Shown here one piece after another: positions 19,766 to 55,843 of a stretch of DNA of 64,000 bases. The position numbers and the translations under genes are program-made. Position 1 is the stretch's first letter. Each line of letters opens with the position of its first letter. The DNA is taken from assembly GCA_944363565.1 (NCBI GenBank), contig CALVUI010000001.1:408075-472074 (forward strand), read 5' to 3'. This DNA is from an uncultured Bacilli bacterium. GTDB taxonomy: Bacteria; Bacillota_I; Bacilli_A; RFN20; CAG-826. The notes below the pieces were generated by a model. That model saw only the letters and a list, made by a program, of their open reading frames with translations. It ran no database searches and was not told where the DNA came from.

Positions 19766-19775
19766 GAGAACATGG

Positions 19776-21047: not shown

Positions 21048-21066
21048 ATGCGGATATACAAAAACG

Positions 21067-21080: not shown

Positions 21081-21138
21081 GATGGCAGTATTTTAACCCT
21101 CCGGAAACTTTAATCAAGAGAAGCGCTGGGAAAAGACG

Positions 21139-21164
21139 AAAAAAGAGGGGGCTATAGCCCCCTC
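21139..21164 (-). terminator. Rho-independent terminator after the pullulanase gene
   Basis: Palindrome GAGGGGGC-tata-GCCCCCTC with a minus-strand TTTTTT. Confidence 0.6.
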
Positions 21165-21180
21165 CTTCTTTTTGGAGCAA

Positions 21181-24264: not shown

Positions 24265-24286
24265 GTTTTTCTCCTCTAAAAAAGGC

Positions 24287-25909: not shown

Positions 25910-25912
25910 TGA

Positions 25913-26830
25913 CTAACCCTTGACGGCGCCGCCGGTAACCCCGGAGACGTAGTAACGCTGCATGCAAAGGAAGACGATGGCGACCGGAATGGCGACGATG
26001 ACGGCTCCGGCGCAGAACTGGCCCCAGTATTTGCCACGCCGTCCGTCCTCGACCGCCAGCATGTTGTTGAGCAAGATGGCGACGGTCCAGTTGGTCTTCT
26101 CGACGTTGGCGCTGCCTAGGACGTAGGAGGCCGTGATGTATTCTCCCCAAGGCGACATGAAGGCCGTGAGGGCGGTATAGACGACGATTGGTTTGCTCAG
26201 CGGCATGATGATCTTATAGAAGATCTGGAACCTCGTTGCCCCGTCGATCATGGCCGCTTCGTCGATCTGCTTGCTGATGGTATCGAAGAAGCCCTTCGAA
26301 ATGTAATAGCCCATGCCGGCCCCGCCGCTATAGATGATGATGAGGGACCAGATGGTCTGGCGGATTCCGATGGTATCCATGAACCAGTACATGATGATGA
26401 GGGAGAGGAAGCCCGGGAACATCCCGAGAATCAGGATGACCCGCATGAACCCGGTCCTCGCCTTGAAGCGGAGACGGCTGAAGGCATAGGCGGTGGCAAG
26501 GGTCATGATGGTCGCGATGACCATGCAGAACAAGGCGATGAGGAGGGTGTTGACGAAAGCTCCGAGGTAGAGCGTCCCGTTTTCCACGTAACCGAAGAAG
26601 TTGTACATGGACGAAGCCGTGCTCCCGTTGATGGAAACGACCGCGTTGGTGGCCAGCCCCGCGTAATTGCCGAACCAAAATTCGGTGGGAATGAAGGAAG
26701 AGGCACCGCCATAGCCCCTGGCCGAGAAGCTTTGGAGGACGAGCCAAACGATGGGCAGCACCCAGATGACGGCCAGGATGGTCAGGATTATGTAGACGAC
26801 GATGTCGCCGATTATTCTTCTTGCTTTCAT
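25913..26830 (-). CDS. Carbohydrate ABC transporter permease (MalG-like)
   Basis: Six TM helices and the EAA loop (AAMIDGATRFQIFYKIIMP). Confidence 0.85.
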   Translation of the reverse strand: MKARRIIGDIVVYIILTILAVIWVLPIVWLVLQSFSARGYGGASSFIPTEFWFGNYAGLATNAVVSINGSTASSMYNFFGYVENGTLYLGAFVNTLLIALFCMVIATIMTLATAYAFSRLRFKARTGFMRVILILGMFPGFLSLIIMYWFMDTIGIRQTIWSLIIIYSGGAGMGYYISKGFFDTISKQIDEAAMIDGATRFQIFYKIIMPLSKPIVVYTALTAFMSPWGEYITASYVLGSANVEKTNWTVAILLNNMLAVEDGRRGKYWGQFCAGAVIVAIPVAIVFLCMQRYYVSGVTGGAVKG

Positions 26831-29511: not shown

Positions 29512-29588
29512 AGCGTTTCTCCTTTTCTTTCTTCCCGATAAAAGGAAACCCGGGGCGGGCGGGCCGCCCCGGGGTTTTGGCGTTTGGC

Positions 29589-30956
29589 TTAGTCGCCGGT
29601 CGCCCAACCGGTGGTGCTGGTAATCATCCCAGCGATGGCCTCGGCGGCGGTGGTGTATTCACTGCCCCAAGGATGATCGGTCCCGGCGTTGTCGCGGATG
29701 AGGGCACCGAAGTTTTCCATCGGGGTCCAGAAGTTCGGGGTGACGTTGGCACCCTGCGGGACGGTGTTCCCGGCGAGTTCCATGGTTTGGAGGGCCATGA
29801 GGAATTCGTTGCTCGTGACCTTTTCGTCATCGCGAAGGCTGATGTCGGCCGGACCGTAGCCACGGACATCGAGGAGGGTCTTCTGCGATTCGGTGGAAGT
29901 CAGGTATTCGGCGAAGTCCCAGGCCAGGTCTTCACGGCTGATGTCCGGGGCTTCCTCGCCTTCTTCGAGCTTCCAATTGATCGTTTCGTTGATGACGTTG
30001 GCGTTCACGGAAACGGCCTTGTAGCCAAGGAAGGTCTTCATCTGCTTGTCCACGCCGTTGATTTTGAGGCTCGGAAGGACGGTGACCTTGATGTCATCGG
30101 CTCTGTCTTCGCCAACGGCGGTACGGATGTTTTCGAGGGCGTTCCAGAGGACACAGGCCCCGACGGTACCATCGGCAAAGCCTTCTTGGATGGAGGCACT
30201 ATCATCGCTGGCCACGATCCCGTCGCCGCCATCGCTGGTCTCGATGCCGTATTCGCCGAAGAGTTCGCTCATGGCTTCGGCACCGGCAGCGACTTCGGGG
30301 GTATCGAAGTTCGAGCTGAGGATGACCTTGCCGTCGATGACCTCGGCGGAGAATTCACCGCCGGCTGCCCAAAGGAATGTCGGGGTATACCAGCCATTGG
30401 CTAGGGGATAAAAGAAGTCGACATGGTTGGTAACGCAGGCTTCGGCGATGCCTTCCATGGTCTTGACCTGCTCGTCCGTGATCTTCTTGGAGTCGTAGAT
30501 GAGGGCGTACCCGTTGTCGTTCCTGAAGGGAATGCCGTAAGCCTGCATCTCGGCGGTGGCGGTTTCAAGGCTAACGGCGTCTAGCCCGGCTTGGCCGGCC
30601 TGCTCCAAAACGGCGGCTTCGCGATCGTCCCCGATCGGAAGGATGGCGCTGGCTTCCGCGGCGGTCCTGAGGTTGTCGTCGGCAATCATGACGACGTCGG
30701 GCTGGCTCTTGTAGTCGGTCTGGAGGGCGTTGCCGATATCGCCTTCGCCGCCGTTGGCGGTCACGGCGATATTGAGGTCAGCATACTCAGGATGGGCTTC
30801 CTTGAACTTCTCGATGATGGTGGCCATGACCTCGTTGTCCTGCTCCGGGCAATAGATGGTCAGGTCGTAGACGGGGCCGGTCGGACCGCAGCCGGCAAGG
30901 GCCATGAGCCCGGTACCGGCGACGAGGGCCAGCATCCCCACTTTCTTGTTGAACAT
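29589..30956 (-). CDS. Carbohydrate ABC transporter substrate-binding lipoprotein (MalE-like)
   Basis: Lipobox LAGC (MFNKKVGMLALVAGTGLMALAGC) and family 1 solute-binding fold. AAGGAG 9 nt upstream of ATG 30956. Confidence 0.85.
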   Translation of the reverse strand: MFNKKVGMLALVAGTGLMALAGCGPTGPVYDLTIYCPEQDNEVMATIIEKFKEAHPEYADLNIAVTANGGEGDIGNALQTDYKSQPDVVMIADDNLRTAAEASAILPIGDDREAAVLEQAGQAGLDAVSLETATAEMQAYGIPFRNDNGYALIYDSKKITDEQVKTMEGIAEACVTNHVDFFYPLANGWYTPTFLWAAGGEFSAEVIDGKVILSSNFDTPEVAAGAEAMSELFGEYGIETSDGGDGIVASDDSASIQEGFADGTVGACVLWNALENIRTAVGEDRADDIKVTVLPSLKINGVDKQMKTFLGYKAVSVNANVINETINWKLEEGEEAPDISREDLAWDFAEYLTSTESQKTLLDVRGYGPADISLRDDEKVTSNEFLMALQTMELAGNTVPQGANVTPNFWTPMENFGALIRDNAGTDHPWGSEYTTAAEAIAGMITSTTGWATGD

Positions 30957-31087
30957 TAAATTAGCTCCTTTCCAAATTGTTTGGCGACACGCTCGGCAAA
31001 GAGCCGCGTCGCTTTGCAATTTAATCTCAACATGGCTATATATTAAGCGAGGACGGACGAGTTGCAAGAGGAAAAGTAAGCGGTTTC

Positions 31088-31459: not shown

Positions 31460-31611
31460 TTCCTATTCTTCACCTAACCTTTGCTAACGGCGGCCCCACG
31501 AGGTGGGCGCCGGACCTGCGTGATTATACACCAAGAACGGCCTTGGAGGAGAAAATTTTTGTCAAGTCCCTCCTTCCCCTCCTTCTTGCTAGAATTAGGG
31601 CGGAGGAAATT

Positions 31612-32262
31612 ATGGACAAGATCGCCCGTTACATCGACCACACCCTTTTGAAGGCCACCGCCAAAAAGGAAGACATCACCAAACTCTGCGAGGAAGCCAA
31701 AACCTACGGCTTCGCCTCGGTCTGCGTCAATCCCGTAAACGTCCCCCTGGCCAAAAGCTGCCTCGAGGGCTCTAGTGTCAAGGTCTGCACCGTCATCGGC
31801 TTCCCCTTGGGGGCCAATACGACCGCGACCAAGGTCTACGAGACCAAGGAAGCCATCAAGGACGGGGCCACCGAAATCGACATGGTCATCAATGTCGGTA
31901 AGGCCAAGGAAGGGGGCTTTGCCTACGTCGAAAAGGAAATCAGGGCCATCAAGGAAGCCTGCGGTAGCATCCTCCTCAAGGTCATCATCGAGACCTGCTA
32001 TCTGGATCAAGAAGAAATCGTCGAAGCCTGCAAGGCCGCGAAAAACGCCGGGGCCGACTTCGTCAAGACCTCGACCGGCTTTGGGACCGCAGGGGCCAAG
32101 GTCGAAGACGTGGCCCTGATGCGGAAGACCGTCGGACCCAACATGGGGGTCAAGGCCAGCGGCGGCATCCATAGCGAGGAAGAAGCCATGGCCATGCTCA
32201 AGGCCGGTGCCAACCGCCTCGGGACTTCCGCTTCCCTAAGGATCATCGGGGCGGAAAAGTAA
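31612..32262 (+). CDS. deoC: Deoxyribose-phosphate aldolase
   Basis: Start at [14 protein letters not shown] with GGAGG 5 nt upstream. DeoC motifs (VCVNP, VKTSTGF, catalytic Lys in [10 protein letters not shown]). Confidence 0.85.
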
Positions 32263-33190: not shown

Positions 33191-33835
33191 TTAGCCTTCG
33201 AGCAAGACGGCGGCCCTGGCGGTCGCCACCCGGCTGGCCCCGGCGGACAACAAAACCCTGACTTGGCTGAGGTCGCGGATGCCCCCGCTGGCCTTGATGA
33301 AGAAGTTGGGTCCTAGGATCTTTCTAAGCAAACGGACGTCGCTTTCCTTGACCCCGCTCTTCCCATAGGCGGTCCCGGTCACGATGCCGTTGGCCCCGCC
33401 TTCCTTCAAAGCCAAGGCGGCGTGGGCGATTTCGGTCGGGGTCAGCAAGGAGGTCTCGAGGACGAAACGGAGGTCGGTCATGTTGGGAAGGCGCGACCTG
33501 ATGAGAAGGGCTTCGCGCTTCAGATATTCGAAGTCCTTTTCCTTGATCATCACGAGATTGGCCATCACTTCGACCCCATCGGCCCCGTTGCGGATGGCAT
33601 CGGCGGCGGCAAAAGCCTTGGCCGGGGGCGTGAGGAGCCCGAGCGGAACGTCGATGGCCGCGTAGTTCAGGGTGTGGCCCTTTTTCAAAAGAAGCCGGGC
33701 CATCCGGCTATAGAAGGCCGGGACGGTGACGGCGGCGGCATGGTACTTGGCGGCTTCCAAAAGGAAGTTCCGCATCTCGGCGATCCCGGCGTCGTTATAG
33801 AGGTAGGTGGCCTCGACGTAGCGTTCAAGCTTCAT
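33191..33835 (-). CDS. DeoC/LacD-family class I aldolase paralog
   Basis: 214 aa TIM-barrel-like protein with the Schiff-base lysine context FIKASGGIRDL. Clearly distinct from the canonical deoC 1.5 kb away. Confidence 0.55.
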   Translation of the reverse strand: MKLERYVEATYLYNDAGIAEMRNFLLEAAKYHAAAVTVPAFYSRMARLLLKKGHTLNYAAIDVPLGLLTPPAKAFAAADAIRNGADGVEVMANLVMIKEKDFEYLKREALLIRSRLPNMTDLRFVLETSLLTPTEIAHAALALKEGGANGIVTGTAYGKSGVKESDVRLLRKILGPNFFIKASGGIRDLSQVRVLLSAGASRVATARAAVLLEG

Positions 33836-33865
33836 GCCCTATATCCTAAACCATTTCGTATAAAT

Positions 33866-33886
33866 GAAAAAGGGGCCACGCCCCTT
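33866..33886 (-). terminator. Rho-independent terminator of rpmF
   Basis: GGGGC-cac-GCCCC hairpin 9 nt after the rpmF stop, with a minus-strand TTTTTCATTT. Confidence 0.55.
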
Positions 33887-33892
33887 CTTCTT

Positions 33893-34078
33893 TTAGCCTT
33901 CCTTCTTGAGCCCGAGGACGTCCTTGCCGTCGTAGTAGCCGCATTCCGGGCACACCCGGTGGCTTTGGACATAGGCCCCGCAGTGCGGGCACTTGACGAT
34001 TCCTTCGACTTCGAGTTTGAAGTGGCTCCGGCGCATCCGCTTCGCGGTTTTGCCGGTCCTTCTGAACGGTACTGCCAT
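33893..34078 (-). CDS. rpmF: 50S ribosomal protein L32
   Basis: [22 protein letters not shown]...[22 protein letters not shown], canonical L32 with a zinc ribbon. Start at Met12 of the listed ORF. Confidence 0.85.
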
Positions 34079-34112
34079 GGTTCTTCCTTTCTTGCCGCCA
34101 TATTCCACCAAA

Positions 34113-34152
34113 GAAAAAGGACATCGTCAACGCCAAGCGTTAGACAATGTCC
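34113..34152 (-). terminator. Compound hairpin plus U-tract downstream of the membrane-protein gene
   Basis: Minus strand GGACAT...ATGTCC with an inner AACGC/GCGTT stem, then TTTTTCTTT. Confidence 0.4.
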
Positions 34153-34177
34153 TAATTTAGACGGATTTAAGCGATGC

Positions 34178-34993
34178 TCACTCGCGGCGGCGTCCGACCC
34201 AGATGACCTTCTTCCGCGGAGCCGGAGTGGGGGCGTAGCCTTCGGGGGCCACGACCTGCTGGACCACTTCGACCTTCTTGAGGCTATCGACGTTGGTATT
34301 GCGGTCGAGGAGCCGGAGGGCGAGGGCGATGATGAAGAGCACCCCGAAGAGGAGTCCCAAGATGACGGTAGCGCCCTGGAAGATCGGCTGGAGCTCGAAG
34401 GTCCCGCCGAGGATGTCATGAACGATGCGCGGGAAGACGGCGATATGTTCGGCCGAGAAGTAGGCATAGGCCGGTAAGAAGGCGATGAGGCCGAGGAAGA
34501 GACGGCCGGTCGCGACGTTCAGGCTCTTCGACTTGCTAAAGGACATGAAGAAGGCGATGAGGCCGAAGACGGCGGCGAGGGCCAAGCCGAGGCCCTCGAT
34601 GATGATCGGGGTGAACTTCGTGAACTCCTCGAGATTGGGGATGATGCACTGGAGGGCAGCGCCGACGACCATAAGGAGGATGAGAAGGTAATAAAGGACA
34701 TGGACGCCACGCCGACGGCCGGCCGCCCCGACGATCAAGACGATGAGGGAGAGGAGGGCGAAGATGGCATAGGCCCCAAAGGACCCCCAGTTGTAGAGGT
34801 TGAAGCGCGAGAAATCGAACTCAACGATGAAGAGGAACTGCATCAATCCGGCGACCGCGAACAGGAAGCCGAAGAGACCGGTGACGACGTCAAGGGCCTT
34901 GACCTTCTTGCGGGCCTGCGCCTTGTCGGCGACCAAAAACTCGATGGGGGCTTCCGGGGTTTCCGGGGTTACAACGGTGTTTTCCATTTCCAT
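34178..34993 (-). CDS. Integral membrane protein of unknown function (7-8 TM helices)
   Basis: Hydrophobic throughout. Start chosen at MEMENTVV (ATG 34993) with an AAGAGG SD-like sequence upstream. C-terminal Pro-rich tail. Confidence 0.5.
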   Translation of the reverse strand: MEMENTVVTPETPEAPIEFLVADKAQARKKVKALDVVTGLFGFLFAVAGLMQFLFIVEFDFSRFNLYNWGSFGAYAIFALLSLIVLIVGAAGRRRGVHVLYYLLILLMVVGAALQCIIPNLEEFTKFTPIIIEGLGLALAAVFGLIAFFMSFSKSKSLNVATGRLFLGLIAFLPAYAYFSAEHIAVFPRIVHDILGGTFELQPIFQGATVILGLLFGVLFIIALALRLLDRNTNVDSLKKVEVVQQVVAPEGYAPTPAPRKKVIWVGRRRE

Positions 34994-35061: not shown

Positions 35062-36330
35062 TCACGAAATTTGAAGAGATTGGCCGTAAACCCCCTTCAC
35101 GAGGCCCTTCCTTTGGGCCTTGGGAGCGTAGATCGTGCAATCGATGTAGCGGCCGCTCTTGCCCCTCACATAGCCATCTTCGAGGACTTCCTCGACCACG
35201 ATTTCGTCTTCGAGGCCAAGTAGGGAAGCCTCGTACTCCCCTTGCAGTTTCTTGCCGAGGGCAATGGCTTCCTTGGTCCTTTCCTTCTTGATCGAGGGAG
35301 CGACCTGGGGATAGAGGGCCCCCCTCGTCCCCGGGCGCGAGGAATAAGGGAAGGCGTGGAGGAAGTCGATGTGGGCCTTTTCGACGAAGGCCAGGGATTC
35401 TTGAAAGTCCTCTTCGGTCTCGCCCGGGAAGCCGCAGATGAAGTCGGCGGCGATGGCGACACCCGGATAAGCTTGTCTAATTGCCCCGACCGTCCTCAGG
35501 TAATCGGACGTATCGTAGGGACGGCCCATCTTCGATAGGGTCTTCTGGCATCCCGATTGGAGGGGCAGGTGGAAATGGGGGCAAAGCCGCCCCTGGCTGT
35601 CCTTCAAAAGCGATAGCAATTCCCCATCGACCTCACTGCTTTCCAAAGAACCGAGGCGGATCCGGACGTCACTAGGAAGGATGTGGAGCAAATGGGCGCA
35701 GAGGCGTGAGAGGTTAACTCCTTCCACCCCGTACTTCCCCAGATGGATCCCGGTCAGGACGATCTCGTGGTAGCCCATGTTCGAAAGGGTCAAAGCTTCC
35801 TGGTAGACGGCTTCGGGAGCCCGGCTTCTGACCGGACCCCGGAGATAGGGAATCAGACAATAGGCGCAGAAGGAGTCGCAGCCGTCCTCGATCTTGAGGA
35901 AGGCCCGGGCCCTTTCTTCGTAGAGGGCTTTCCCTCCTTCCTCGTAATCCCAGCGGGTTTTGCGGGGGATTTCGACGAAACTCTTAGCCACCTCCGGCCT
36001 TTTCCCGGTCAGGAGAGGAACGAAGGAAAACTTCGGATGGGTCCCGTAGACCAAATCGGCCCCGGCCTTCAGGAAGGACTCCCCGTCTTTTTGGGAGGCG
36101 CAGCCCAAGACCACGAGGGTGGCCTCGGGGGACGAGCGCCTGAGCTGGCGCGCCCTTTGGTGGGACTTCCGCTCCCCTTCGGCCGTGACCGCGCAGGAAT
36201 TGAGGACGAGGACGTCGGCTTCTTCCTTCTTGTCGGTCGGGGTATGGCCCCTCTCTTCCAACAAGGAGGCGATGGCGGCACTTTCGTAGGCATTAACCTT
36301 GCAGCCTAGGGTTTCGATAAAGAACTTCAT
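35062..36330 (-). CDS. mtaB: tRNA methylthiotransferase, MiaB-like family (MtaB/YqeV type)
   Basis: N-terminal MTTase Cys triad (LGC...NSCAV...VLGCA) and radical-SAM CAYCLIPYLRG motif. No C-terminal TRAM extension, as in MtaB. Confidence 0.8.
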   Translation of the reverse strand: MKFFIETLGCKVNAYESAAIASLLEERGHTPTDKKEEADVLVLNSCAVTAEGERKSHQRARQLRRSSPEATLVVLGCASQKDGESFLKAGADLVYGTHPKFSFVPLLTGKRPEVAKSFVEIPRKTRWDYEEGGKALYEERARAFLKIEDGCDSFCAYCLIPYLRGPVRSRAPEAVYQEALTLSNMGYHEIVLTGIHLGKYGVEGVNLSRLCAHLLHILPSDVRIRLGSLESSEVDGELLSLLKDSQGRLCPHFHLPLQSGCQKTLSKMGRPYDTSDYLRTVGAIRQAYPGVAIAADFICGFPGETEEDFQESLAFVEKAHIDFLHAFPYSSRPGTRGALYPQVAPSIKKERTKEAIALGKKLQGEYEASLLGLEDEIVVEEVLEDGYVRGKSGRYIDCTIYAPKAQRKGLVKGVYGQSLQIS

Positions 36331-37085
36331 TTCCGGCGGTCCTCCTCGGCCATGTGGAGCAAACGGGCGCTAAGCAAACGTCCTTCGAGGAGGGCGGAAA
36401 GGAAGCACTGCCGATCCCCTTCGTAGAAGGCGGCCGAAACCGGGATGCTCCGGGCGATGACCTTGACCTTCGATACGCTTGGCAAGAAGCGGTCGTAGTA
36501 ATAAAGGGCGGCGTCGAGCCTTCCCTGGTCGTTGAGCAAATAGAGGGCCTCGGCGTCGAAATCGTAGAAACTCATCCCGTTTTTGCCGCGATAAACGGGG
36601 ACGAGGCGGGTAAAGAGGGAGGCATACAGCTCGGGCCCGTAGGTCTCGAAGGGGTCGAGCAGGAGGCCTTCGTAGTTTTTGAGCAGTCCGTCATAGGGCG
36701 GCTCGTCGAGCCGTCCCATCTCCTCGCGGTAGAGGCGGTTGACCGAACGGCTGAAGAAGGGGATGAAGATCTTCTCCTCCCCCTTTTGGAAGTAAGGCAA
36801 GGTCTTCTTGGTCTTTTCCAAATGGGCATAGAGGTCGAAGGAAGGATCCTTCTTCAGTTCGGAAAGGCCTTCCCGGTAGGAAGCCTCGAGCCTTCTTTTG
36901 GAAAAATAGGAACGGATGACGAGGTTGGCCCTCACCACCTCGAAGGTATTTTCCGGGGAAAGAAGGGCCTCGAAAGGTGGAAGGGATGCCAAAACCGCCG
37001 AATTGCTCCGGTAATAGCTCCACTCCTCCGAATCGTAGTAGTTGGTGGGCAGCTGGTAGCGGCGGCTGTACTCGTAGATGTTCAT
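36327..37085 (-). CDS. Hypothetical Tyr/Phe-rich cytoplasmic protein
   Basis: 252 aa, translationally coupled on both sides (4-nt overlaps), inserted between rsmE and mtaB. No recognisable motif. Confidence 0.45.
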   Translation of the reverse strand: MNIYEYSRRYQLPTNYYDSEEWSYYRSNSAVLASLPPFEALLSPENTFEVVRANLVIRSYFSKRRLEASYREGLSELKKDPSFDLYAHLEKTKKTLPYFQKGEEKIFIPFFSRSVNRLYREEMGRLDEPPYDGLLKNYEGLLLDPFETYGPELYASLFTRLVPVYRGKNGMSFYDFDAEALYLLNDQGRLDAALYYYDRFLPSVSKVKVIARSIPVSAAFYEGDRQCFLSALLEGRLLSARLLHMAEEDRRK

Positions 37086-45746: not shown

Positions 45747-46139
45747 TCACTTCTCCTCTTCTTTATGGCTTTCGTCGTATTCTTCCATGGCCTGGATCGT
45801 CTTTTCGTCCTCGACGGGTTCGAGGATCCGCGCCATGTTTTCGGCCGCCGCCTCTTCCGGGGTCGGCGGGACTTCCTTCTTGCTTTGCTTGTTCATCTCC
45901 TTGGCGTAGGTTTCCATTTCCTTCTTGGTCCCCTCGTCATCGACGTCGACCAGGAGGCGGTTGAGTTCTTCCTCGGCGATTTCCTTGTCGCTTTTGGGCT
46001 TTTCGGTGTTCTGGAAGGGCTTGACGTACTTCTTGACCAGGATGACGGCGGCGACGATGACGCCGAAGATGAGCAAGAGTCCGACGATGATGACGGCCGG
46101 GTTGCTCCAGAAGGCGGCGGAAAGGGTGAAGATGTTCAT
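45747..46139 (-). CDS. Small N-terminally membrane-anchored acidic protein
   Basis: 130 aa with one N-terminal TM helix, then a K/E-rich coiled region. Coupled to both neighbours by 4-nt overlaps. Confidence 0.45.
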   Translation of the reverse strand: MNIFTLSAAFWSNPAVIIVGLLLIFGVIVAAVILVKKYVKPFQNTEKPKSDKEIAEEELNRLLVDVDDEGTKKEMETYAKEMNKQSKKEVPPTPEEAAAENMARILEPVEDEKTIQAMEEYDESHKEEEK

Positions 46140-47689
46140 TTGTTTTCTCCTCTTTGACTCGGGGTATAGACGAATTTGTTCTTGACCTGCATCTTGGAAT
46201 AATAGCCCTCGCTGGCCAGTTTATCCATGGAGGTGCGGGCCGTTTCATAGGCGCAGCGGTTGAATTTCTTGTATTGCTGGATGACGTAGTAACGCCCCAT
46301 CGTGCAATGGAAGGCGTAGAAGCGGGCCTGCCCCTTGCTGAGAGCCGGGTTGGTCTCAAGGAGGTAACGGGCGTAGTCCCTCGCCTCCTTTTCGCTTAGG
46401 GCCTCGGGCTCATTTTGGTAGCCTCTAGGCAAAGCCGCCTTCCCGACGTCCTTGGGCGAAAGGCGCGGCAGGACCGTCTTTGGTTCTTCCTTCTTCGGGG
46501 TTTCGGCCGGGACGGGTTCTTCTTCCTCTTCCAACATGACCTCTTCCCTAGGAAGGGGTTCTTCGACTTTGGTTTCGGAGACCGTTTCTTCTTTGGCGAT
46601 CGCGGGTTCTTCCCTGACTTCCGGGACCGGCTGTTCTTCCGGCTTGGTCTCGATCTCCTTCAGGATCCCGCGGAGGGCCGCTTCGTTTTGTTCTTGCGGG
46701 TCCAACCGCCGATATTCCGGACGATAGACCTCGACCTTTTCCTTCTGCCCTTCCTGGAAGAGGGACTCGGCTAGAGGGGTCAAAATCTGGCAGGCCAGTA
46801 AAACCATGTAGGTCAGGTCGCCGGTCTTCTGGGTCTCGGCCCCGGCTTCCTGGTAACGGGAGTCCTTCTTGAGGAATTGCGATAAGGGCAAATAGTAGGC
46901 CGCCTTTCCGAAACCCTCGGACTCGAGGTAGCGGAGTCCCAAGAGGACGGCACACTCGAAGGAGTGACGCGCGAATGGCATGACGTTGTCGGCGAAGAAG
47001 GAGGCGGCCACGGCCTTGACCAGAGGCGAGGCCCCCGAGGCTTCGAGGCCCTTGTACATGTCCTCCATCAAAACCTCGATCGAGCCGAAGGGGGCGAAGC
47101 CGTAGACGGAGTCGAGACCCCCGATGTTGTAGAGGCGCTTCGGATCTTCGTGACGGTAGAAGGAGGTCAATTCGGGAGTCAGTTCCATCCTAGCCAAGGC
47201 ATCGGGCAAAAAGTCCTCGCCGCTAGGGCCCCCGAGGGCGAAGTAGGCATCGACTGCCTTGAGGTAGGCGTAGATCCCGCGGCCCGTCGGATCCTCGTCT
47301 TCGTAGCGGCCGCTTAACATGGCCTTGAGGGCGGAGTCGCTGACGCTGACCCCTTCCCCGGCTCTAATTCCTTGGAGGGCCGGGAACATGTAGGTCCGCC
47401 TCAGGGCGTTTCTACTAGCCCCTTCGGTCGAGCCGAGCGAAGCGGTCAGGGCCTCTAGGGCCTTTTCGGCCTCGTCGATCTTCTTCTTGATGGCGGGCGT
47501 GAGGGTCAGGTGGAAGGGATGGCCCCCGATGGTCTTGAAGGGGCTGAAACCGATCGAATTGGCATTGCGGTAACTCACCACCTCCTGCCAGATGTAGTCG
47601 ACGCCGCCCATCCCCATGACGCGCCTAAGCGCCTTGCGGCTCAAATAGGACTCGTCGGTGAACTTCACGGCCTGGGTGGAAACTTCCAT
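46136..47689 (-). CDS. Fic/Doc-fold-like protein with a degenerate active-site motif, an E/P-rich linker and a C-terminal winged-helix-like domain
   Basis: The segment VMPFARHSFECAVLLG is colinear with the Fic motif HPFxDGNGRxxRLL, but the catalytic His and the DGNGR residues are replaced. A central acidic Pro/Glu-rich low-complexity segment of ~90 aa is present. The C-terminal region is basic and wHTH-like. Confidence 0.4.
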   Translation of the reverse strand: MEVSTQAVKFTDESYLSRKALRRVMGMGGVDYIWQEVVSYRNANSIGFSPFKTIGGHPFHLTLTPAIKKKIDEAEKALEALTASLGSTEGASRNALRRTYMFPALQGIRAGEGVSVSDSALKAMLSGRYEDEDPTGRGIYAYLKAVDAYFALGGPSGEDFLPDALARMELTPELTSFYRHEDPKRLYNIGGLDSVYGFAPFGSIEVLMEDMYKGLEASGASPLVKAVAASFFADNVMPFARHSFECAVLLGLRYLESEGFGKAAYYLPLSQFLKKDSRYQEAGAETQKTGDLTYMVLLACQILTPLAESLFQEGQKEKVEVYRPEYRRLDPQEQNEAALRGILKEIETKPEEQPVPEVREEPAIAKEETVSETKVEEPLPREEVMLEEEEEPVPAETPKKEEPKTVLPRLSPKDVGKAALPRGYQNEPEALSEKEARDYARYLLETNPALSKGQARFYAFHCTMGRYYVIQQYKKFNRCAYETARTSMDKLASEGYYSKMQVKNKFVYTPSQRGENK

Positions 47690-49647: not shown

Positions 49648-52023
49648 TCATTGGCCCTTTTGGTAAAAATCACCTAAGAGGGCCCTCAGTTCTTCCGTCG
49701 AGTGAACATAGATGGCCTTCCCGTAATGCTCTTGGAGGAGGACGAGGTTGCGACCCCGGTAACGGTCGTCGATGAGGAGGACCGCCCCGCGGTCGTCCTC
49801 GCTTCTGATGAGGCGTCCGACGGCCTGGAAGACCTTGTTGAGGCCGGGGGCCAGATAGGCCGAGTAATAACCGCTGCCGTCCTTTTCCTCGTAATGCTCG
49901 CGGATCGCTTCCCTTTCCTTCGAAACGCCAGGGAGGCCGAGGCCGACGACCGCGACCCCGATCAGGCGGTCGCTGACCAGATCGACCCCTTCCGAGAAGG
50001 AGCCGCCGAGGACCGAAAGGCCGACCGTCGTTTCCTTGGGGGAGGGTTTGAAGGCCCTAAGGAAGGCGGCCTTTTCCCTTTCTTCCATTCCCCGGTGGTG
50101 GACCAGGACTTTCCCATTGATTTCCAAGGCCTCCTCGGCCTTTTCCAGGTATTCGAAACTCGGGAAGAAGATCAGGTAATTCCCGGTCTTTTGACTGACG
50201 AAGGTCTCGAGCATTTCGATGACCTGGTCAAAACTTTCTTCCCTTTGGCGGTACCTTAGGCCCAAGGGGGCGATGTAAAGGGCCATGTGGGATTTGTCGA
50301 AGGGCGAAGGCAAGGAGATGGCCTTGGCCTTTTCCCCGACGATGGCCGCACTATAGAAGTCCATCGGGGTCAAGGTGGCGGAAAAGAGGGCCGCCCCCTT
50401 GAGGAGGCCGAGGCTTTCCTCGAGGAAGACCGAGGGATCGGGGCAAAGGCGGGTCAGATGGAGATGACCCTTATCGCCTTCAAGGAGGAGCTTCGAGCCT
50501 TCGGAATATTCCTCGGCGATGACGGCGTAGCGGTGGAGGTCGCGTCCCACTTCCTTGGCGGTTCTCGGGAAGGGGGCGAGATGGGTCTCCTTTTCTTCTT
50601 CGCCTTCCATCGAAAGGAGGGAGGCCTCGCGCCCCTTCTTCTTTTCCTCGGCCCGTCGCTTTTCCTCGTAGGCCAAGATGGCATTGACCAGTTCCTTGTC
50701 GTTGACCTCTTCCTCCCCTCCGAGGGCCTCGAAGGCCTTCTCGACCTTGCCGAGGGCCCTCGCCGAGGAACGGTAACCGGCTTTGTTCAGGTCTTTCTTG
50801 GCCCCCTTGATCGGAAAGAGGGAAAGGGTGGCCCCATAGCATTCCCGTCCCCTTTCCACCAGGTTATGGGCTTCATCGAACAAGCCAAAACAGGTGGCGG
50901 AAGAATCACTTTCGACGAAATAACGGGCCAAGCGGGCCAAGGGATCGATGAGGTAGTTGTAGTCGGCCACCACGACGTCGCTATAAAGGCTGAGGTCGAG
51001 GGAAAGCTCGAAGGGGCACATCCCCTTTTCCTCTCCGTATTCCTTCACAAATTTGGCCGAGAAATCCTCGCGTTTCCCATAGAGTTCCTTGACCGCCGCC
51101 CTCATCTTCGGATAGTAGTCCTTGGCGTAGGGGCATTCGTCGGGATTGCAGGAGGCCCCGGGGGTGAGGCACATCCTTTCCTTCCCGATCAAACTCGAAT
51201 GGGAAAGGCGGGCCCCTTCTTCCCTTAATAAGTCGAGGGTGTCCTCGGCCGCCTTGGCCCCGGTCGTCTTGGCCGTGAAGTAAAAGAGGCGTTCGTACTC
51301 CCCGAGTGATAGGGATTTCAGGGCGGCATAGAGGGCGCTGACCGTCTTCCCGACCCCGGTCGGGGCCTCGATCAGGGTGTAGGCCCCATCCCTCGCCGTC
51401 CGATAGACGGCCTTCATCATCTCCCGCTGGCCCAGGCGATAGGAAGGAAAGGGGAAGGTCAGTCTTTGAAGGCTTTTGTTCCTTTCTTCCTTGAGGGCGG
51501 CGGCCCCGGCGAAGAAGTCGAGGTAGTCGTCGAGGTAGCCCCCGACTTTCTCCTCGAGTTCTTTTAGGCTGAGGTGCTCGCTTCGATTGGCCTTTTTCTT
51601 GGAATCGGTCTGGCTTAGGTAAATGAGGCGGATGTGGGCTTTTTGGACCTCGGGATGGGCATGGAGGTACATGAGGGCGTAGCACTCGGCCTGGGCGAAG
51701 TGCCACTTGGCCTGGACCGAGGCGAAGTGGTCGAGGTCATCGACCGTCGACTTGATTTCCTCGATGACCGGGGTCCCCGAAAGGTCGAAGTCCAAACCGT
51801 CGGCCTTGCCGGAGAGCTCGATCGTCCCCCTTTCCCGGACGAAGGTTTCCTTGAGGGGCAATTCGGCGGTGTAACTACCGGGCCTTGTCCTTTGGTATTC
51901 CTCGTGGAGGCGGGTCCCCTCCTCCATTGATGAGAGGTTGTAGATCCTATTGTCGATGTCCCCTTCCCGTAACAAAAAGTCGACCAACTGGTGGACGCTT
52001 AGACGGAAAAAAGGGAGATCCAT
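49648..52023 (-). CDS. DinG/Rad3-family ATP-dependent DNA helicase with an N-terminal PD-(D/E)xK (RecB/Cas4-like) nuclease domain
   Basis: N-terminal ~170 aa carry nuclease motifs II (IELSGKADGL), III (VIEEIKS) and QhxxY (AQAECYALMY). They are followed by a Walker A motif (APTGVGKT), a four-Cys Fe-S insertion (CLTPGASCNPDECPY...MCPF), a DEAH-like motif (FDEAHNL) and helicase-C motifs. Confidence 0.8.
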   Translation of the reverse strand: MDLPFFRLSVHQLVDFLLREGDIDNRIYNLSSMEEGTRLHEEYQRTRPGSYTAELPLKETFVRERGTIELSGKADGLDFDLSGTPVIEEIKSTVDDLDHFASVQAKWHFAQAECYALMYLHAHPEVQKAHIRLIYLSQTDSKKKANRSEHLSLKELEEKVGGYLDDYLDFFAGAAALKEERNKSLQRLTFPFPSYRLGQREMMKAVYRTARDGAYTLIEAPTGVGKTVSALYAALKSLSLGEYERLFYFTAKTTGAKAAEDTLDLLREEGARLSHSSLIGKERMCLTPGASCNPDECPYAKDYYPKMRAAVKELYGKREDFSAKFVKEYGEEKGMCPFELSLDLSLYSDVVVADYNYLIDPLARLARYFVESDSSATCFGLFDEAHNLVERGRECYGATLSLFPIKGAKKDLNKAGYRSSARALGKVEKAFEALGGEEEVNDKELVNAILAYEEKRRAEEKKKGREASLLSMEGEEEKETHLAPFPRTAKEVGRDLHRYAVIAEEYSEGSKLLLEGDKGHLHLTRLCPDPSVFLEESLGLLKGAALFSATLTPMDFYSAAIVGEKAKAISLPSPFDKSHMALYIAPLGLRYRQREESFDQVIEMLETFVSQKTGNYLIFFPSFEYLEKAEEALEINGKVLVHHRGMEEREKAAFLRAFKPSPKETTVGLSVLGGSFSEGVDLVSDRLIGVAVVGLGLPGVSKEREAIREHYEEKDGSGYYSAYLAPGLNKVFQAVGRLIRSEDDRGAVLLIDDRYRGRNLVLLQEHYGKAIYVHSTEELRALLGDFYQKGQ

Positions 52024-52029: not shown

Positions 52030-52965
52030 TTAAAGGAAGAGGGCCCGGTGGCCGTTGACGAAGGCTGAGGCCGCCATCTTCTTGCTACCGGAAAGCTGGA
52101 CTTCCAAGAGTTCCAAACTTCCTTCCCGTAAACCCAAAAGAAGGCGCCCATTCTGATATTTCAGACTACCAAACGGTAGGCTAGCCGTACTAGGCTTGGA
52201 CTTGAAAATCTTGAGGTTTCCGCCCTCGAAGGGGACGTAGGCCCCGGGGGTCGGGGACAGGGCCCGGACGTAATTGAAGGCTTCAAGGCCGTTGAGTCTA
52301 TCGATGGGCAAAGCCTCGTCTTCCTTCTTGATCTTCTTGGCGATGGTGACGAGGCTCTCGTCCTGGGGTTTGCCCCCAAGGGTTCCGGAAGCGACCTCGA
52401 GCAAGGGGCCGGCCGCCAGCTTGATGCTGGCAAGGGCCATCTTCTCGCAGATGGTCCCGTAGTCGTCGTCTTCTAGGATCTTTATTTCCTCGATGGCGTA
52501 GACCTCGCCGGCATCCATCTTCTCGACCATCTTCATGAGGGAGACCCCGGTCTTCCCTTCCCCGGCCATCAGGGCCCTTTGGATCGGCGCGGCACCCCGA
52601 TAACGGGGCAGGATCGAGCCGTGGAAGTTGTAGGCCCCGATTTTGGCGTAATCCAAGAAGGGTCCGGGGACGATCTGGCCGTAGGCAAAGGTCAGGATGA
52701 GGTCGATGTCGAGGTCCTTGAAAAGGGGATATTCCTCCTTCATCCTCGCCGGGGTATAGACCGGGAGGTTATGGCGAAGGGCCACTTCCTTGACCGGCGA
52801 GGGGGTCAATATTTTCTTCCGCCCCACCGGGGCGTCTTCCTGGGTCACGACCCCAATGACGTCGTAACCGAGTTCCAAAAGACCCTCGAGGAGGGTCGCG
52901 CTCATCTTCGGGGTTCCGAGATATAAGACCTTCAGGCGGTCAGCCGTACATTCATTCAAAGCCAT
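52030..52965 (-). CDS. fmt: Methionyl-tRNA formyltransferase
   Basis: N-terminal formyltransferase domain (LYLGTPKMSATLLEGLLE...NFHGSILPRYRGAAPIQ) and a C-terminal domain. Confidence 0.9.
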   Translation of the reverse strand: MALNECTADRLKVLYLGTPKMSATLLEGLLELGYDVIGVVTQEDAPVGRKKILTPSPVKEVALRHNLPVYTPARMKEEYPLFKDLDIDLILTFAYGQIVPGPFLDYAKIGAYNFHGSILPRYRGAAPIQRALMAGEGKTGVSLMKMVEKMDAGEVYAIEEIKILEDDDYGTICEKMALASIKLAAGPLLEVASGTLGGKPQDESLVTIAKKIKKEDEALPIDRLNGLEAFNYVRALSPTPGAYVPFEGGNLKIFKSKPSTASLPFGSLKYQNGRLLLGLREGSLELLEVQLSGSKKMAASAFVNGHRALFL

Positions 52966-53013: not shown

Positions 53014-55005
53014 ATGAGTGAAGTTAACGGCAAACACGATGCCCTCGTGTCATTCGTCGAAAGAAGCGGCGATCTTTTCAAGGGCGAGGGTCCGACCCTC
53101 AAGCATATCTATGAGATGTGCGTCGACGAGCCCAACAAGCGGGCGGTCACCTATTTCGACGAAGACGGTCGAATCAGGCATTACGACTACAAGAAATACA
53201 ACGAGTACGCCCTCCTTTACGGGTCCTATCTATCGGCCCTCTTCAAGGACATCCCCTACGATGAGCCGATCGGCCTCAAGATCAAGAACCTCCCGGCCTG
53301 GCCCTATCTGTTCTTCGGGATTTTGATGTCGGGCCACCGTCCCCTCTTGCTTGATTACCGGCAGGAAAGGGAAAAGACCGCGGTCCTCCTTGGGGAAGCC
53401 GGGGCCAAGGCCATCATCGTCAACGAAGAAGAAGACTACGAGGTGGCGACCTACCGCCTCCGCGACCTCAAGAAAGCCGGGAAGGGGGAAATCGGCAAAT
53501 GGGCCGACCACGTCTACCTCTGCACCTCCGGGACCACCGGAGCCTCCCGCATCATGGTCTATAACGGCGAAGATTTCTGCCACCAGATCAGGGCCGCCCT
53601 CGTCGTCCCGGGCCGTAACCGCGAGTTGATGAAGCTAGGGAAGATCAACATCTTGGCCATGATCCCCTTCCACCACATCTTCGGCCTCGTCGCCGTCTTG
53701 CTGTGGTTCACCTTCTACCACAAGAACCTCGTCTATCCGACCTCGATCTCGAGCAAGGACCTCCTCGACGCCGTCAAAAAGGGCAAGTGCACCCACGTCT
53801 TCTCGGTCCCGATGCTCTTCGACCAGATCTCGACCTTGGTCGAACGGAGCATGAAGAAGCAAAGCGAGAAGCTCCAAGCCTATTACGCCGCCATGGCCGC
53901 CTACAACCGCCGGGAGATCAGCAAGAAGGAGGCAGGCTTTATTCCGACCACCAAGTTCTTCAACCGCCTCCTCAAGAAACGGGTCCTCGGCCCCTCTCCC
54001 TACTTCCTGATTTCCGGGGGCGGCTATTTGAGCGAAGAAACGCACAAGACCTTGGAAGGCCTCGGCTATCCCCTCCATAACGGGATCGGGATGACGGAAG
54101 TCGGGATCACCTCGGTCGAACTGAGTACCGATCCGGTCGTCCGTCTCAAGGACTCGGTCGGTCTCCCCTTCTACGGGGTGACCTACAAGAGGGACGAAAA
54201 CGGGGAACTTTTGATCAAGAGCCCCTACGTCCATAAAGAAGAGATCATCGGCGGGAAGCTTTCCAAGACCCCCCTCGACGAGGAGGGCTTCTTCCATAGC
54301 GGCGACCTCGTCGACATCGACGAAGACGGACGGGTCTACATCCGGGGCCGTCTCAAGGAGACGATCATCAACGGGAACGGGGAAAACGTCTATCCCGACG
54401 AACTCGAGGAACACTTCCGGGGCCTCAAGGGGACCTTGCGCCTCAGCGTCCTCGGGGTCAAGAACGGGAACGGCAAGGACGAGGACATCTGCCTCGTCTA
54501 CGAAAAGGATCCCTCTTCCTACGACGTCGAAGCCCTCAAGGCCGACTTCAAGGAAAGAAACGCCAAGCTCAACCCCTTCTCCAGGGTCAATCGGCTTTAT
54601 ATGTCTTTGACACCCTTGCCTCTAGCCAACGGCATCAAGGTCAAGCGCCTGGCGGTGGCCAAGGCCATCGAAGAAGGGAGCAAGGACTACGTCGACATCT
54701 TCAGTACGGTGGTCGAGAACAAGAAGGACGACACTTCCGAAAAACTCAAGGCCTATCCGAAGGAAAAAGTCGAAAGCCTGCTCAAGGAAATCGAAGGCTT
54801 CTTCGCCTCAACCCTGGCTCTTTCCCCCGAGGAGGTCAAGGCCCAAAGCGACTTCGGAGCCGACCTCGGTGGGGATTCGATGAGCTACGTCGCCATGGTG
54901 GCGGAAATCAACTCCCGTTATGGCATTGAACTGGAAGAGGAAAACTACGGCAAGCTCCTCACCCCCGAGGATTTCGTCCTCTACCTCTTGAAGAAAAGAA
55001 AATAG
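53014..55005 (+). CDS. AMP-dependent synthetase/ligase (adenylation domain) fused to a C-terminal acyl/peptidyl carrier protein domain
   Basis: P-loop-like LCTSGTTGASRI, adenylation core motifs (YGMTE-like GIGMTEVG, FHSGDLV, LKETII) and a terminal ~80-aa PP-binding domain with DLGGDSMSYVAMVAEIN. Confidence 0.75.
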   Translation: MSEVNGKHDALVSFVERSGDLFKGEGPTLKHIYEMCVDEPNKRAVTYFDEDGRIRHYDYKKYNEYALLYGSYLSALFKDIPYDEPIGLKIKNLPAWPYLFFGILMSGHRPLLLDYRQEREKTAVLLGEAGAKAIIVNEEEDYEVATYRLRDLKKAGKGEIGKWADHVYLCTSGTTGASRIMVYNGEDFCHQIRAALVVPGRNRELMKLGKINILAMIPFHHIFGLVAVLLWFTFYHKNLVYPTSISSKDLLDAVKKGKCTHVFSVPMLFDQISTLVERSMKKQSEKLQAYYAAMAAYNRREISKKEAGFIPTTKFFNRLLKKRVLGPSPYFLISGGGYLSEETHKTLEGLGYPLHNGIGMTEVGITSVELSTDPVVRLKDSVGLPFYGVTYKRDENGELLIKSPYVHKEEIIGGKLSKTPLDEEGFFHSGDLVDIDEDGRVYIRGRLKETIINGNGENVYPDELEEHFRGLKGTLRLSVLGVKNGNGKDEDICLVYEKDPSSYDVEALKADFKERNAKLNPFSRVNRLYMSLTPLPLANGIKVKRLAVAKAIEEGSKDYVDIFSTVVENKKDDTSEKLKAYPKEKVESLLKEIEGFFASTLALSPEEVKAQSDFGADLGGDSMSYVAMVAEINSRYGIELEEENYGKLLTPEDFVLYLLKKRK

Positions 55006-55100: not shown

Positions 55101-55364
55101 ATGGCAAACATCAAATCGCAGATCAAGCGCAACAAGACCAACGAGAAGAAAAACCTCGCCAACTCCAGCAAGAAGGCCGCCTGCCACACCTACGTCCGCA
55201 AGGTCGAGGAAGCCGTCAAGGCCGGGAACAAGGAGGAAGCCCTCAAGGCCCTCCCCGCTGCCTTCAAGCATCTCGACAAGCTCGCCGGCGACAAGATCAT
55301 CTCCAAGAACAACGCCGCCCGCCACAAGAGCAGCCTCCAGGTCCTCGTCAACGGCCTGAAGTAA
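55101..55364 (+). CDS. rpsT: 30S ribosomal protein S20
   Basis: MANIKSQIKRNKTNEKKN..., a typical S20 sequence. Confidence 0.9.
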   Translation: MANIKSQIKRNKTNEKKNLANSSKKAACHTYVRKVEEAVKAGNKEEALKALPAAFKHLDKLAGDKIISKNNAARHKSSLQVLVNGLK

Positions 55365-55384: not shown

Positions 55385-55406
55385 AAGGCGCTTCGGCGCC
55401 TTTTTT
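55385..55406. terminator. Bidirectional rho-independent terminator between convergent rpsT and yfcE-holA
   Basis: AAGGCGC-TTCG-GCGCCTT followed by TTTTTT on the plus strand. An A-run on the other side gives the minus strand a U-tract too. Confidence 0.7.
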
Positions 55407-55408: not shown

Positions 55409-55843
55409 TTATATGTCCTTGAAGACGGCTTCGACTTTGCCGTCCTCGATGACGAGGACGCAATAGGAAGGTGCTAGGCCGTCGCGCGGCAATAAGGCCG
55501 ACCCCGGATTGATGAGCCAAAGGTTCCCGACCTTCTTGAACATCCTCACATGGGTATGGCCAAAGGCATAAATGGCGATGTCTTTTTCCTTTGAAAGCAA
55601 GGAGGGTTCGGGGGGCCGATGGGTGGCTTTTAGAAAACCCAAGGGGGTCTTGATCTTCCTTTCTAAGGGGTAACCGCCAAAATGGTCGCAGTTGCCCTTG
55701 ACCCCGACGAAGGGGGCGATTTCACTCGGGGGAAGTTCCGAATCCCCCAAGTGGAGATAGCAATCGGCCCCTTGTTCCCTTAGATAGACGGCTTCTGCTA
55801 GATGCTCGTCCCCATGGGTATCGGAAAGGAGGACGATCTTCAA
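55409..55843 (-). CDS. YfcE-like metallophosphoesterase (MPP superfamily)
   Basis: MKIVLLSDTHGDEH, GDSELP and GHTHV motifs of calcineurin-like phosphoesterases. Confidence 0.75.
   Translation of the reverse strand: MKIVLLSDTHGDEHLAEAVYLREQGADCYLHLGDSELPPSEIAPFVGVKGNCDHFGGYPLERKIKTPLGFLKATHRPPEPSLLSKEKDIAIYAFGHTHVRMFKKVGNLWLINPGSALLPRDGLAPSYCVLVIEDGKVEAVFKDI

Follow-up and report, generated by a model that had tools for sequence, protein, structure and literature searches.

Several bacterial systems have been described in which an adenylating enzyme activates a free fatty acid that is then carried on an acyl carrier protein (ACP). In Escherichia coli, Aas, a 2-acyl-glycerophosphoethanolamine (2-acyl-GPE) acyltransferase/acyl-ACP synthetase, and the lysophospholipid transporter LplT re-acylate lysophospholipids with free fatty acids (PMC11416262). 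In Caulobacter and other Proteobacteria, the dedicated synthetase AasR charges the dedicated carrier AcpR, and acyl-AcpR is the preferred substrate of serine palmitoyltransferase (SPT) (PMC9386255). [quoted passage not shown] The gene considered here lies on the forward strand at 53014..55005 of a 64-kb window (the whole stretch of DNA that was analysed) from the genome of an uncultured Bacilli bacterium, and encodes an adenylating enzyme of the ANL superfamily fused to its own acyl carrier domain (hereafter A-ACP). Its sequence and comparative context lead us to propose, with a probability of roughly 0.55, that it is a self-loading acyl-ACP synthetase, which would feed an acyltransferase encoded elsewhere in the genome.

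The architecture (TamA, FAAL-ACP) and the chemistry (AasS, Aas, AasR) are already known. TamA and the FAAL-ACP proteins share the same ANL-then-ACP two-domain layout, but they are starters of secondary metabolites within biosynthetic clusters, whereas the gene described here is a core gene at a housekeeping locus. What is new is this status as a housekeeping-locus core gene in RFN20-like bacteria, as opposed to a cluster-bound starter module, together with an insertion and a P-loop variant of its own in a family that has no characterised member, no curated model and no close structure.

The open reading frame (ORF) is complete and its product is composed of an adenylating part of about 555 amino acids (aa), a linker of about 29 aa and a carrier domain of about 79 aa. 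An initial annotation, made from the sequence, had described an AMP-dependent ligase of about 580 aa with a C-terminal phosphopantetheine-attachment domain. The fusion was confirmed by two Pfam domains above their gathering cutoffs, namely AMP-binding (E = 1.6e-30; 106.6 bits against a cutoff of 29.9), which places the protein in the ANL superfamily, and PP-binding (residues 594-657; E = 1.2e-7; 32.3 bits against 20.8), which identifies the carrier; the size given for the ligase was somewhat too large, but a fused carrier domain does follow, after the linker. An AlphaFold2 model of the 663-aa protein, built on a 25-sequence alignment, reached a mean confidence score (pLDDT) of 87.4 and displayed an ANL fold of two subdomains, joined by a linker of low confidence to a helical carrier domain (helices at residues 583-600, 622-636 and 651-662), in which Ser622 starts the second helix. 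The features of the coding sequence are as follows:

53014..55005 (+): complete ORF (663 aa plus stop) for the ANL adenylating enzyme with its linker and acyl carrier domain
53125..54231 (+): Pfam AMP-binding, residues 38-406, N-terminal subdomain of the ANL fold (Pfam, Foldseek)
53524..53550 (+): variant P-loop (motif A3), TSGTTGASR (alignment)
53665..53685 (+): motif A4, PFHHIFG, of acyl-CoA-synthetase type, without the Asp for an alpha-amino group
53848..53988 (+): helical insertion of about 45 aa, residues ~279-325, between A4 and A5 (profile alignment, AlphaFold2)
54082..54099 (+): motif A5, GIGMTE
54295..54360 (+): motif A7 (HSGD, Asp431 invariant) to the A8 hinge (GRLKE; G445, R446 and K448 invariant)
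54619..54648 (+): motif A10, PLANGIKVKR; K542, K544 and R545 invariant; holds the catalytic lysine of the adenylation half-reaction
54679..54765 (+): linker between the adenylating and carrier domains, residues ~556-584, pLDDT 56-71 (AlphaFold2)
54766..55002 (+): AcpP-like carrier domain, including Pfam PP-binding 594-657
54865..54882 (+): carrier motif LGGDSM, with the attachment Ser622 at 54877..54879

A large protein collection yielded more than 120 homologues that match over the full length (655-695 aa) and are named there only "AMP-binding protein [Bacilli bacterium]" (the JGI name for the protein is "long-chain acyl-CoA synthetase"). Most have both domains on record, and the few without a PP-binding match still contain the carrier motif. 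In a set of 120 of these, which had not been selected by motif, the carrier motif reads L[G/S/R]GDSM and the attachment Ser is kept in 120/120; its conservation had been named beforehand as a point on which the proposal could fall. The core ANL motifs A3, A5, A7 and A8 and the A10 Lys are all present and conserved, the K-V-K-R block of A10 being essentially invariant. Both the P-loop and the GGDS Ser lie where the initial annotation had placed them. Its remark that the P-loop lacks PKG applies equally to the homologues, none of which (0/120) has PKG, their consensus being [ST]SGT[TS]G-x-[AVIS]-[K/R]-[MLI]; the variant is therefore a family-wide trait and no local oddity. It keeps a basic residue, which is Lys in 114 of the 120 and Arg in six, these six being the closest relatives, including the window protein itself.

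Motif A4 bears on the substrate. Only two of the 120 homologues depart from P[FLY]HH[IV]FG in this motif, and none of the 120 has an Asp there. In amino-acid-activating enzymes the Asp of this motif binds the amino group, and a carboxylic acid is therefore a likelier substrate than an amino acid. The helical insertion between A4 and A5 is absent from MenE (profile positions 278-346 correspond to MenE 251-274); its helices were modelled with a pLDDT of about 90, and E306-A307-G308 are conserved within it. The segment after A5 aligns to MenE without extra residues. With regard to the FAAL-specific insertion (FSI), the region after A5 shows none relative to MenE, the family's own insertion lying between A4 and A5. 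The "signature motif" of fatty acyl-CoA synthetases was considered as a sign of a fatty-acid substrate and set aside, since the A7-A8 region is conserved in all ANL enzymes.

The top NCBIfam matches were long-chain-fatty-acid-CoA ligase, MenE and malonyl-CoA synthase, all far below their family cutoffs. A profile of the family searched against PDB sequences retrieved MenE, FadD13, coronafacate ligase, 4CL, MatB and Vibrio AasS (E = 1.8e-22), with NRPS adenylation (A) domains ranking far below the acyl-CoA ligases, and a Foldseek search with the model returned MenE, MatB, chlorobenzoyl-CoA ligase (CBL) and FadD13 with E-values down to 1e-31 and a TM-score of up to 0.82 against MenE (normalised by target). 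A comparison with the DltA, FAAL and AasS families had been suggested; AasS was matched, but both DltA and the FAALs were missing from the top 60 PDB profile matches, and DltA also from the top 25 NCBIfam matches. AasS of Vibrio harveyi (PDB 8hsy/8jyl) is nevertheless no closer in sequence to the window protein than MenE or FadD13, and similarity to the synthetase domain of Aas is no higher than to other ANL enzymes. The carrier domain taken alone best matched the AcpP models of fatty acid synthase type, NF002148 (2.5e-11) and TIGR00517 (5.7e-9), and no DltC or peptidyl carrier protein (PCP) model was among its matches. The top whole-chain Foldseek matches were solved didomains of an adenylating enzyme and a carrier, namely McyG A-PCP (4r0m), the A-PCP of carboxylic acid reductase (CAR; 5msw) and EntE-EntB (3rg2). 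Their geometry indicates that loading of a carrier in cis is feasible, but their identity to the window protein is 15-19%, their substrates are phenylpropanoid or aryl acids, and their downstream domains are ketosynthase (KS), reductase (R) and condensation (C) domains.

A species scan (one genome per species) yielded at least 548 genomes with a relative of the gene, and the best 80 of these relatives were inspected over +/-10 kb around the gene (the 80 loci). The gene order is nearly always lepA-helicase-fmt(-) / A-ACP(+) rpsT(+) / holA-comEC-comEA-greA(-), even at 38-45% identity, and clustering of the neighbourhoods revealed housekeeping synteny alone, without a recurring partner. A-ACP is a vertically inherited core gene outside any biosynthetic island, and its fixed place beside rpsT in at least 548 species genomes fits a role in primary metabolism. 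It had been called stand-alone at the outset, which is right as far as local partners are concerned but not as to orphan status, given one and the same housekeeping locus in so many species. The flanking genes, fmt and rpsT, are those first described:

52030..52965 (-): fmt, divergent, 48 bp from the A-ACP start codon; conserved syntenic neighbour
55101..55364 (+): rpsT, co-oriented, 95 bp downstream of A-ACP
55385..55402 (no strand): bidirectional terminator-like hairpin after rpsT

Of these, fmt is a syntenic neighbour and no functional partner. rpsT follows A-ACP in at least 52 of the 80 loci; the count rises to 66 when two antisense ORF calls, f19 and f22, are taken to be artefacts lying over rpsT (f19 was checked at one locus). 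No terminator-like site was found between A-ACP and rpsT; the two are probably co-transcribed, and the hairpin after rpsT is likely the end of their transcript.

Nearly all ORFs of at least 100 aa outside other genes were scanned in the window, and no condensation, thioesterase (TE), Dlt, acyltransferase or phosphopantetheinyl transferase (PPTase) gene was found among them. Probes for PlsX, a stand-alone ACP and acyltransferases had no match in the window or the 80 loci, and tblastn searches for AcpS and AcpP retrieved from the window only the fused carrier domain. PKS/NRPS genes and genes for an alpha-oxoamine synthase (AOS) were absent from the window and the 80 loci, and C, KS, TE and R domains as well as DltB/DltD genes from the 80 loci. 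The protein and its neighbourhood contain no condensation, thioesterase or reductase domain of the kind that would mark an NRPS A-PCP initiation module, and the initial statement that no condensation, thioesterase or Dlt partner lies nearby holds for the scanned ORFs and for the 80 loci alike. A run of ORFs at 32-39 kb was considered as a fatty acid synthesis or lipid operon and rejected, its genes being GT2, deoC, mtaB, rsmE and tadA.

The 80 loci come from gut and rumen metagenome-assembled genomes (MAGs) labelled Bacilli, Mollicutes, Ca. Enteromonas and Ca. Alloenteromonas. In the GTDB, Ca. Enteromonas is placed in family CAG-826 of order RFN20 and has genomes of about 1.2 Mb with a GC content of 57% (the window has about 58%); for CAG-826, peptidoglycan is predicted to be lacking, and standard wall teichoic and lipoteichoic acid synthesis to be absent. 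The division genes of the window and its lipoprotein signal peptidase gene are:

9277..9741 (-): mraZ
8363..9274 (-): rsmH
6811..8010 (-): ftsA
5696..6787 (-): ftsZ
2415..3023: lspA

The division cluster mraZ-rsmH-ftsA-ftsZ (5696..9741, -) has no mur, pbp or ftsW in between, an arrangement typical of wall-less, Mollicutes-like bacteria. Together with the GC content and the relatives labelled Ca. Enteromonas, it makes the wall-less cell envisaged in the initial annotation plausible. The presence of lspA implies that lipoproteins are made. A search of the literature on RFN20/RF39 lipid metabolism and on acyl-ACP synthetases in Mollicutes retrieved nothing relevant.

Lipid genes do adjoin the gene in several relatives. 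In an exhaustive search of 1.84 billion representatives, about 296 clusters were retrieved at E<=1e-30, most of them of 630-690 aa. On four fetched contigs (L017, L018, L043, L091), which represent three species of the window clade, fakA (Dak2, FakA_M and FakA_C domains) and fakB (DegV), which encode the fatty-acid kinase system, lie directly beside fmt/A-ACP, and this lineage therefore handles exogenous fatty acids. The FakA of the lineage was then used as a probe for related MAG contigs with lipid operons. Two contigs (L090, L096) carry the order (cls)-fakA-plsX-acpP-fakB-acyltransferase, and a third (L089) reads fakB, fakA, plsX, a Zn ribbon gene, a 642-aa protein with AMP-binding and PP-binding domains, a 420-aa acyltransferase and acpP. 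The L089 didomain is homologous to the window protein along its whole length (30% identity over 652 residues; hhalign probability 100) and shares with it the insertion, the degenerate P-loop and the carrier Ser. The stand-alone ACPs on these contigs and on L094 (below), whose genomes may or may not carry the window-type gene, imply the presence there of a PPTase, which 4'-phosphopantetheinylation of a carrier requires. A metagenome scan with the lineage FakA, in which the peptide patterns chosen were poor and included a low-complexity Lys/Glu run, returned a single irrelevant locus at 30% identity.

A second context was found in the sister group of the window clade (L094), where the genes stand in the order A-ACP, MFS_2 transporter, acyltransferase (211 aa), AMP ligase (488 aa), ACP (81 aa) and acyltransferase (208 aa). 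The acyltransferases of L089 and L094 match TIGR00530 (1-acylglycerol-3-phosphate acyltransferase), above the cutoff in the case of L089, and the next-best models for both are those of the Aas "acyl-[ACP]-phospholipid O-acyltransferase". With its activities divided otherwise among genes, the L094 arrangement looks like the E. coli LplT/Aas system for lysophospholipid re-acylation. Basal in the window clade, a gene 14 nt downstream of A-ACP (L098) is homologous to the L094 MFS_2 gene (E = 1.4e-11 over the 71 residues available; the P0247 context is a 2.3-kb contig on which only a 71-aa fragment of the downstream gene was usable), and in another basal relative (L093) a gene for YhhN, of the lysoplasmalogenase family, lies directly upstream. 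MFS transporters, a lysophospholipase-like hydrolase and an acyl-ACP thioesterase are found near the gene in L095.

Two further observations concern these contigs. The 420-aa acyltransferase of L089 (14924..16186) is a tandem duplication of a PlsC-type unit of about 210 aa, and L094 (1816..8069) encodes an activating enzyme, a carrier and an acyltransferase in two full sets, of which the one has a fused A-ACP and the other is split (the 488-aa ligase plus the 81-aa ACP).

The family also includes longer proteins. Among the representatives sampled, fourteen have a length of about 1060-1135 aa, and all six that were tested (P0259, P0271, P0279, P0288, P0291, P0299; single polypeptides of about 1090 aa) are A-ACPs fused to an Aminotran_1_2 domain. 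In P0259, which shares 36% identity with the window protein, this domain was found to match KBL/AONS and bacterial SPT (E 1e-69 to 1e-61), as well as cysteate-C-fatty acyltransferase; the fusion lies at 8001..11264 of its contig (L092), which comes from a walled Firmicute with a Mur ligase. Such SPT/KBL-like fusions may turn free fatty acids into long-chain amino-ketone or sphingoid-type lipids, in phyla from which these are not known. In a protein of 1599 aa (P0375), a class III aminotransferase and an NAD(P)-binding domain are joined to A-ACP, a layout that suggests conversion of a fatty acid into a fatty amine within one protein. These fusions are direct evidence that the A-ACP family passes a carrier-bound acyl group to a lipid-building enzyme.

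In a neighbour-joining tree (100 bootstraps; deep branches weakly resolved), the window clade (28 representatives) received 69% support and joined the MFS_2/acyltransferase group with 81%, while the lipid-operon clade (71 representatives, including L089) received 88%. The set containing the AOS fusions was unresolved at 37% and falls outside the 81% grouping. This position makes the acyltransferase route the likelier partner of the window clade, within the limits of the weak deep branching.

The scheme that we propose from these contexts is as follows. The ANL domain would adenylate a free carboxylic acid with ATP; the acid would most likely be a fatty acid of medium or long chain that the cell takes up from the gut. 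The C-terminal subdomain would then rotate, and the acyl group move to the thiol of the phosphopantetheine that Ser622 carries in the AcpP-like domain of the same protein. The tethered acyl-S-ACP would then dock on a PlsC/Aas-type membrane acyltransferase encoded elsewhere, and this enzyme would acylate a lysophospholipid or other glycerolipid acceptor. Exogenous fatty acids would in this way enter the building or repair of membrane lipids in a peptidoglycan-less RFN20-like cell with a genome of about 1.2 Mb, alongside the FakA/FakB route. Of this scheme, the domain architecture, the catalytic motifs, the conserved Ser, the core-gene status and the lipid contexts and fusions of homologues are shown by the sequences, from which the fatty-acid substrate, the loading in cis and the acceptor enzyme are inferred.

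Several of the described systems resemble this scheme in part. As in Aas/LplT, the A-ACP of relatives adjoins acyltransferases that match the Aas NCBIfam models and an MFS transporter. Aas, however, is a fusion of acyltransferase and synthetase that borrows free ACP, whereas here the synthetase and ACP are fused and the acyltransferase is separate; the transporter of the relatives is of MFS_2/GPH type and not LplT; and the window lineage, whose host is Gram-positive-derived and wall-less, has neither an adjacent acyltransferase nor an adjacent transporter. In the window no PlsC is fused or adjacent to the gene, and the L089 and L094 contexts amount to a functional analogy with Aas-type systems and not to membership among them. 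The predicted chemistry (fatty acid, ATP and holo-ACP to acyl-ACP) is that of V. harveyi AasS, but AasS acts in trans on free AcpP and is without the carrier domain, the insertion of about 45 aa and the variant P-loop. With AasR/AcpR/SPT the family has in common the channelling of free fatty acids to one lipid pathway, which its SPT-fused members would accomplish in one polypeptide; AasR and AcpR, by contrast, are separate proteins encoded beside spt, and no AOS lies near the gene in the window clade, which in the tree is closer to the acyltransferase-context group.

The fusions raise the question of whether the window protein instead serves to load a pathway for amino-lipids or sphingoid bases, in which its acyl-S-ACP would go to a pyridoxal phosphate (PLP)-dependent, SPT-like AOS encoded elsewhere, as in AasR/AcpR/SPT. 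The Aminotran_1_2 domain in 6/6 tested long members, its KBL/AONS/SPT-like character in the 36% identical P0259, and the precedent of AasR-made acyl-AcpR as the preferred SPT substrate argue for such a destination; since the fusions lie outside the 81% clade of the window and acyltransferase-context groups, no AOS gene occurs in the window or the 80 syntenic loci, and the fusion that was looked up (L092) belongs to a walled Firmicute with a Mur ligase, we regard it as unlikely here. An ordinary fatty acyl-CoA synthetase, with acyl-CoA as the main product and the carrier domain as an accessory (regulatory, for docking, or as a minor second acceptor), would agree with the best family-model matches (long-chain-fatty-acid-CoA ligase, MenE and malonyl-CoA synthase), with the JGI name and with the fact that no CoA-excluding features of FAAL type were seen. 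Every one of those matches is far below its family cutoff, however, and an invariant carrier motif, including the Ser in 120/120 homologues, in a fusion kept over about 296 clusters argues for a catalytic carrier. Moreover, the glycerolipid acyltransferases of Firmicutes use acyl-ACP or acyl-phosphate, not acyl-CoA, and we consider the acyl-CoA product quite unlikely.

Three roles had been proposed initially, namely lipid acylation, lipoprotein acylation and a D-alanylation-like surface modification, and the comparative context favours the first. A DltA/DltC-like or other modification of surface polymers or lipoproteins, in which a carrier-bound acyl or aminoacyl group would pass to an MBOAT or other membrane transferase, is compatible in principle with the architecture; lspA is present in the window, and to our knowledge the N-acylating enzyme of Mollicutes-like bacteria is not known. 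Yet motif A4 (FHHIFG) lacks the Asp, DltA is outside the top 60 profile matches, the carrier is AcpP-like and not DltC, no locus contains DltB/DltD, and the wall and lipoteichoic acid pathways are predicted to be absent in CAG-826, so that D-alanylation is not supported; nothing observed speaks for lipoprotein acylation or against it, and this group of explanations appears very unlikely overall. The same two-domain layout is typical of starter modules such as TamA and FAAL-ACP, and the P0375 fusion resembles a fatty-amine pathway, so that an NRPS/PKS-like starter for a fatty-acid amide or a lipopeptide, TamA-like and with its partners scattered in the genome, could also be imagined. A housekeeping locus beside rpsT in at least 548 reduced genomes and 80 loci free of C, KS, TE and R domains speak against it, as does the PKS/NRPS context described as constant for FAALs and missing here, and we hold a starter module to be highly improbable.

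Returning to the self-loading acyl-ACP synthetase, some observations weigh against it as well. Neither the window nor any of the 80 loci has an acyltransferase, PlsX, stand-alone ACP or PPTase gene within 10 kb, and the partner acyltransferase is deduced only from more distant relatives with 30-38% identity. Some close relatives (36% identity) feed an AOS instead. A FakAB-PlsX-AcpP-acyltransferase set is possibly already present in the lineage (L090, L096), which would leave a second activation route unexplained. In addition, the P-loop is degenerate, the Pro and Gly of PKG being lost, and the deep branches of the family tree are weakly resolved.

Other features of the locus and the window were recorded. 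On the opposite strand downstream of the A-ACP/rpsT pair lies a further gene:

55409..55843 (-): Metallophos_2 phosphoesterase gene

This gene always adjoins the pair but switches side: many relatives have it in the place and orientation seen in the window, whereas in 19 of the 80 loci it is directly upstream and co-oriented. In one relative (L001/L002/L003, 8581..9997), cysK (PALP) and a cysE-like hexapeptide acetyltransferase gene stand between fmt and A-ACP, co-oriented with it, and a similar 176-aa hexapeptide-repeat gene is found just before A-ACP in 4 of the 80 loci. Between lepA and fmt, a DEAD_2/Helicase_C_2 (DinG/XPD-like) helicase of 791 aa is encoded at 49648..52023 (-) and conserved there in 65 of the 80 loci; it stands in place of the gpr-spoIIP-yqxA genes of Bacillus subtilis. 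Two ORFs (130 aa and 517 aa) without a Pfam match are located between hemW and lepA (45747..47689, -); the larger protein, of about 500 aa, is kept in this place in 46 of the 80 loci and is therefore lineage-specific. A large alpha-glucan utilisation cluster extends over 17079..31067 (-), including three GH13 enzymes (one of 882 aa, one of 1027 aa that contains CBM48 plus a pullulanase-associated domain, and one of 540 aa whose C-terminus is SusG-like), an ORF of 423 aa without matches, two ABC permeases, one of them unusually long (925 aa), and a solute-binding protein. Mid-sized ORFs without a Pfam or NCBIfam match occur within otherwise conserved housekeeping runs at 36327..37085, 31474..32172 and 33832..34467 (all -), one of which, between rsmE and mtaB, is 252 aa long; some such ORFs may be spurious at 58% GC.

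Several MAG records that contain the gene are titled otherwise: Hallerella (L011), Sodaliphilus (L012), Lachnospiraceae (L013), Prevotella sp. CAG:755 (L020), Bacteroides uniformis (L026), Paludibacteraceae (L030) and Bacteroidales (L062). The first five have the Bacilli-type syntenic locus despite their titles, and L030 and L062 carry the gene at about 40% identity with less or none of the flanks on their contigs; the organism names on all seven bins look wrong.

The guts of humans, chickens and ruminants harbour RFN20 and related wall-less Bacilli in abundance; these bacteria are uncultured and probably reliant on scavenged lipids. If the proposed function is true, activation of fatty acids on the protein's own carrier would be a key step in the membrane building of RFN20-like Bacilli, and the gene could serve as a lineage marker or as a handle for cultivation, for instance in the choice of fatty-acid or lysolipid supplements. 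A bolder proposal, which we advance tentatively and consider rather doubtful, is that A-ACP is the essential, dedicated entry of host- or diet-derived fatty acids or lysolipids to the RFN20 membrane. An NRPS-like loading didomain would here have been recruited to primary lipid metabolism, either as a bypass of PlsX/AcpP for sn-2 acylation or for another acceptor, such as a Mollicutes-like lipoprotein N-acyltransferase, and the wider family would be a modular "fatty-acid loading cassette", not recognised before, for acyltransferases, SPT-like synthases or aminotransferases in different Firmicutes. The family of about 296 clusters ties one loading didomain to three lipid outputs, and its SPT-like fusions in Firmicutes hint at amino-lipid or sphingoid synthesis outside the known phyla.

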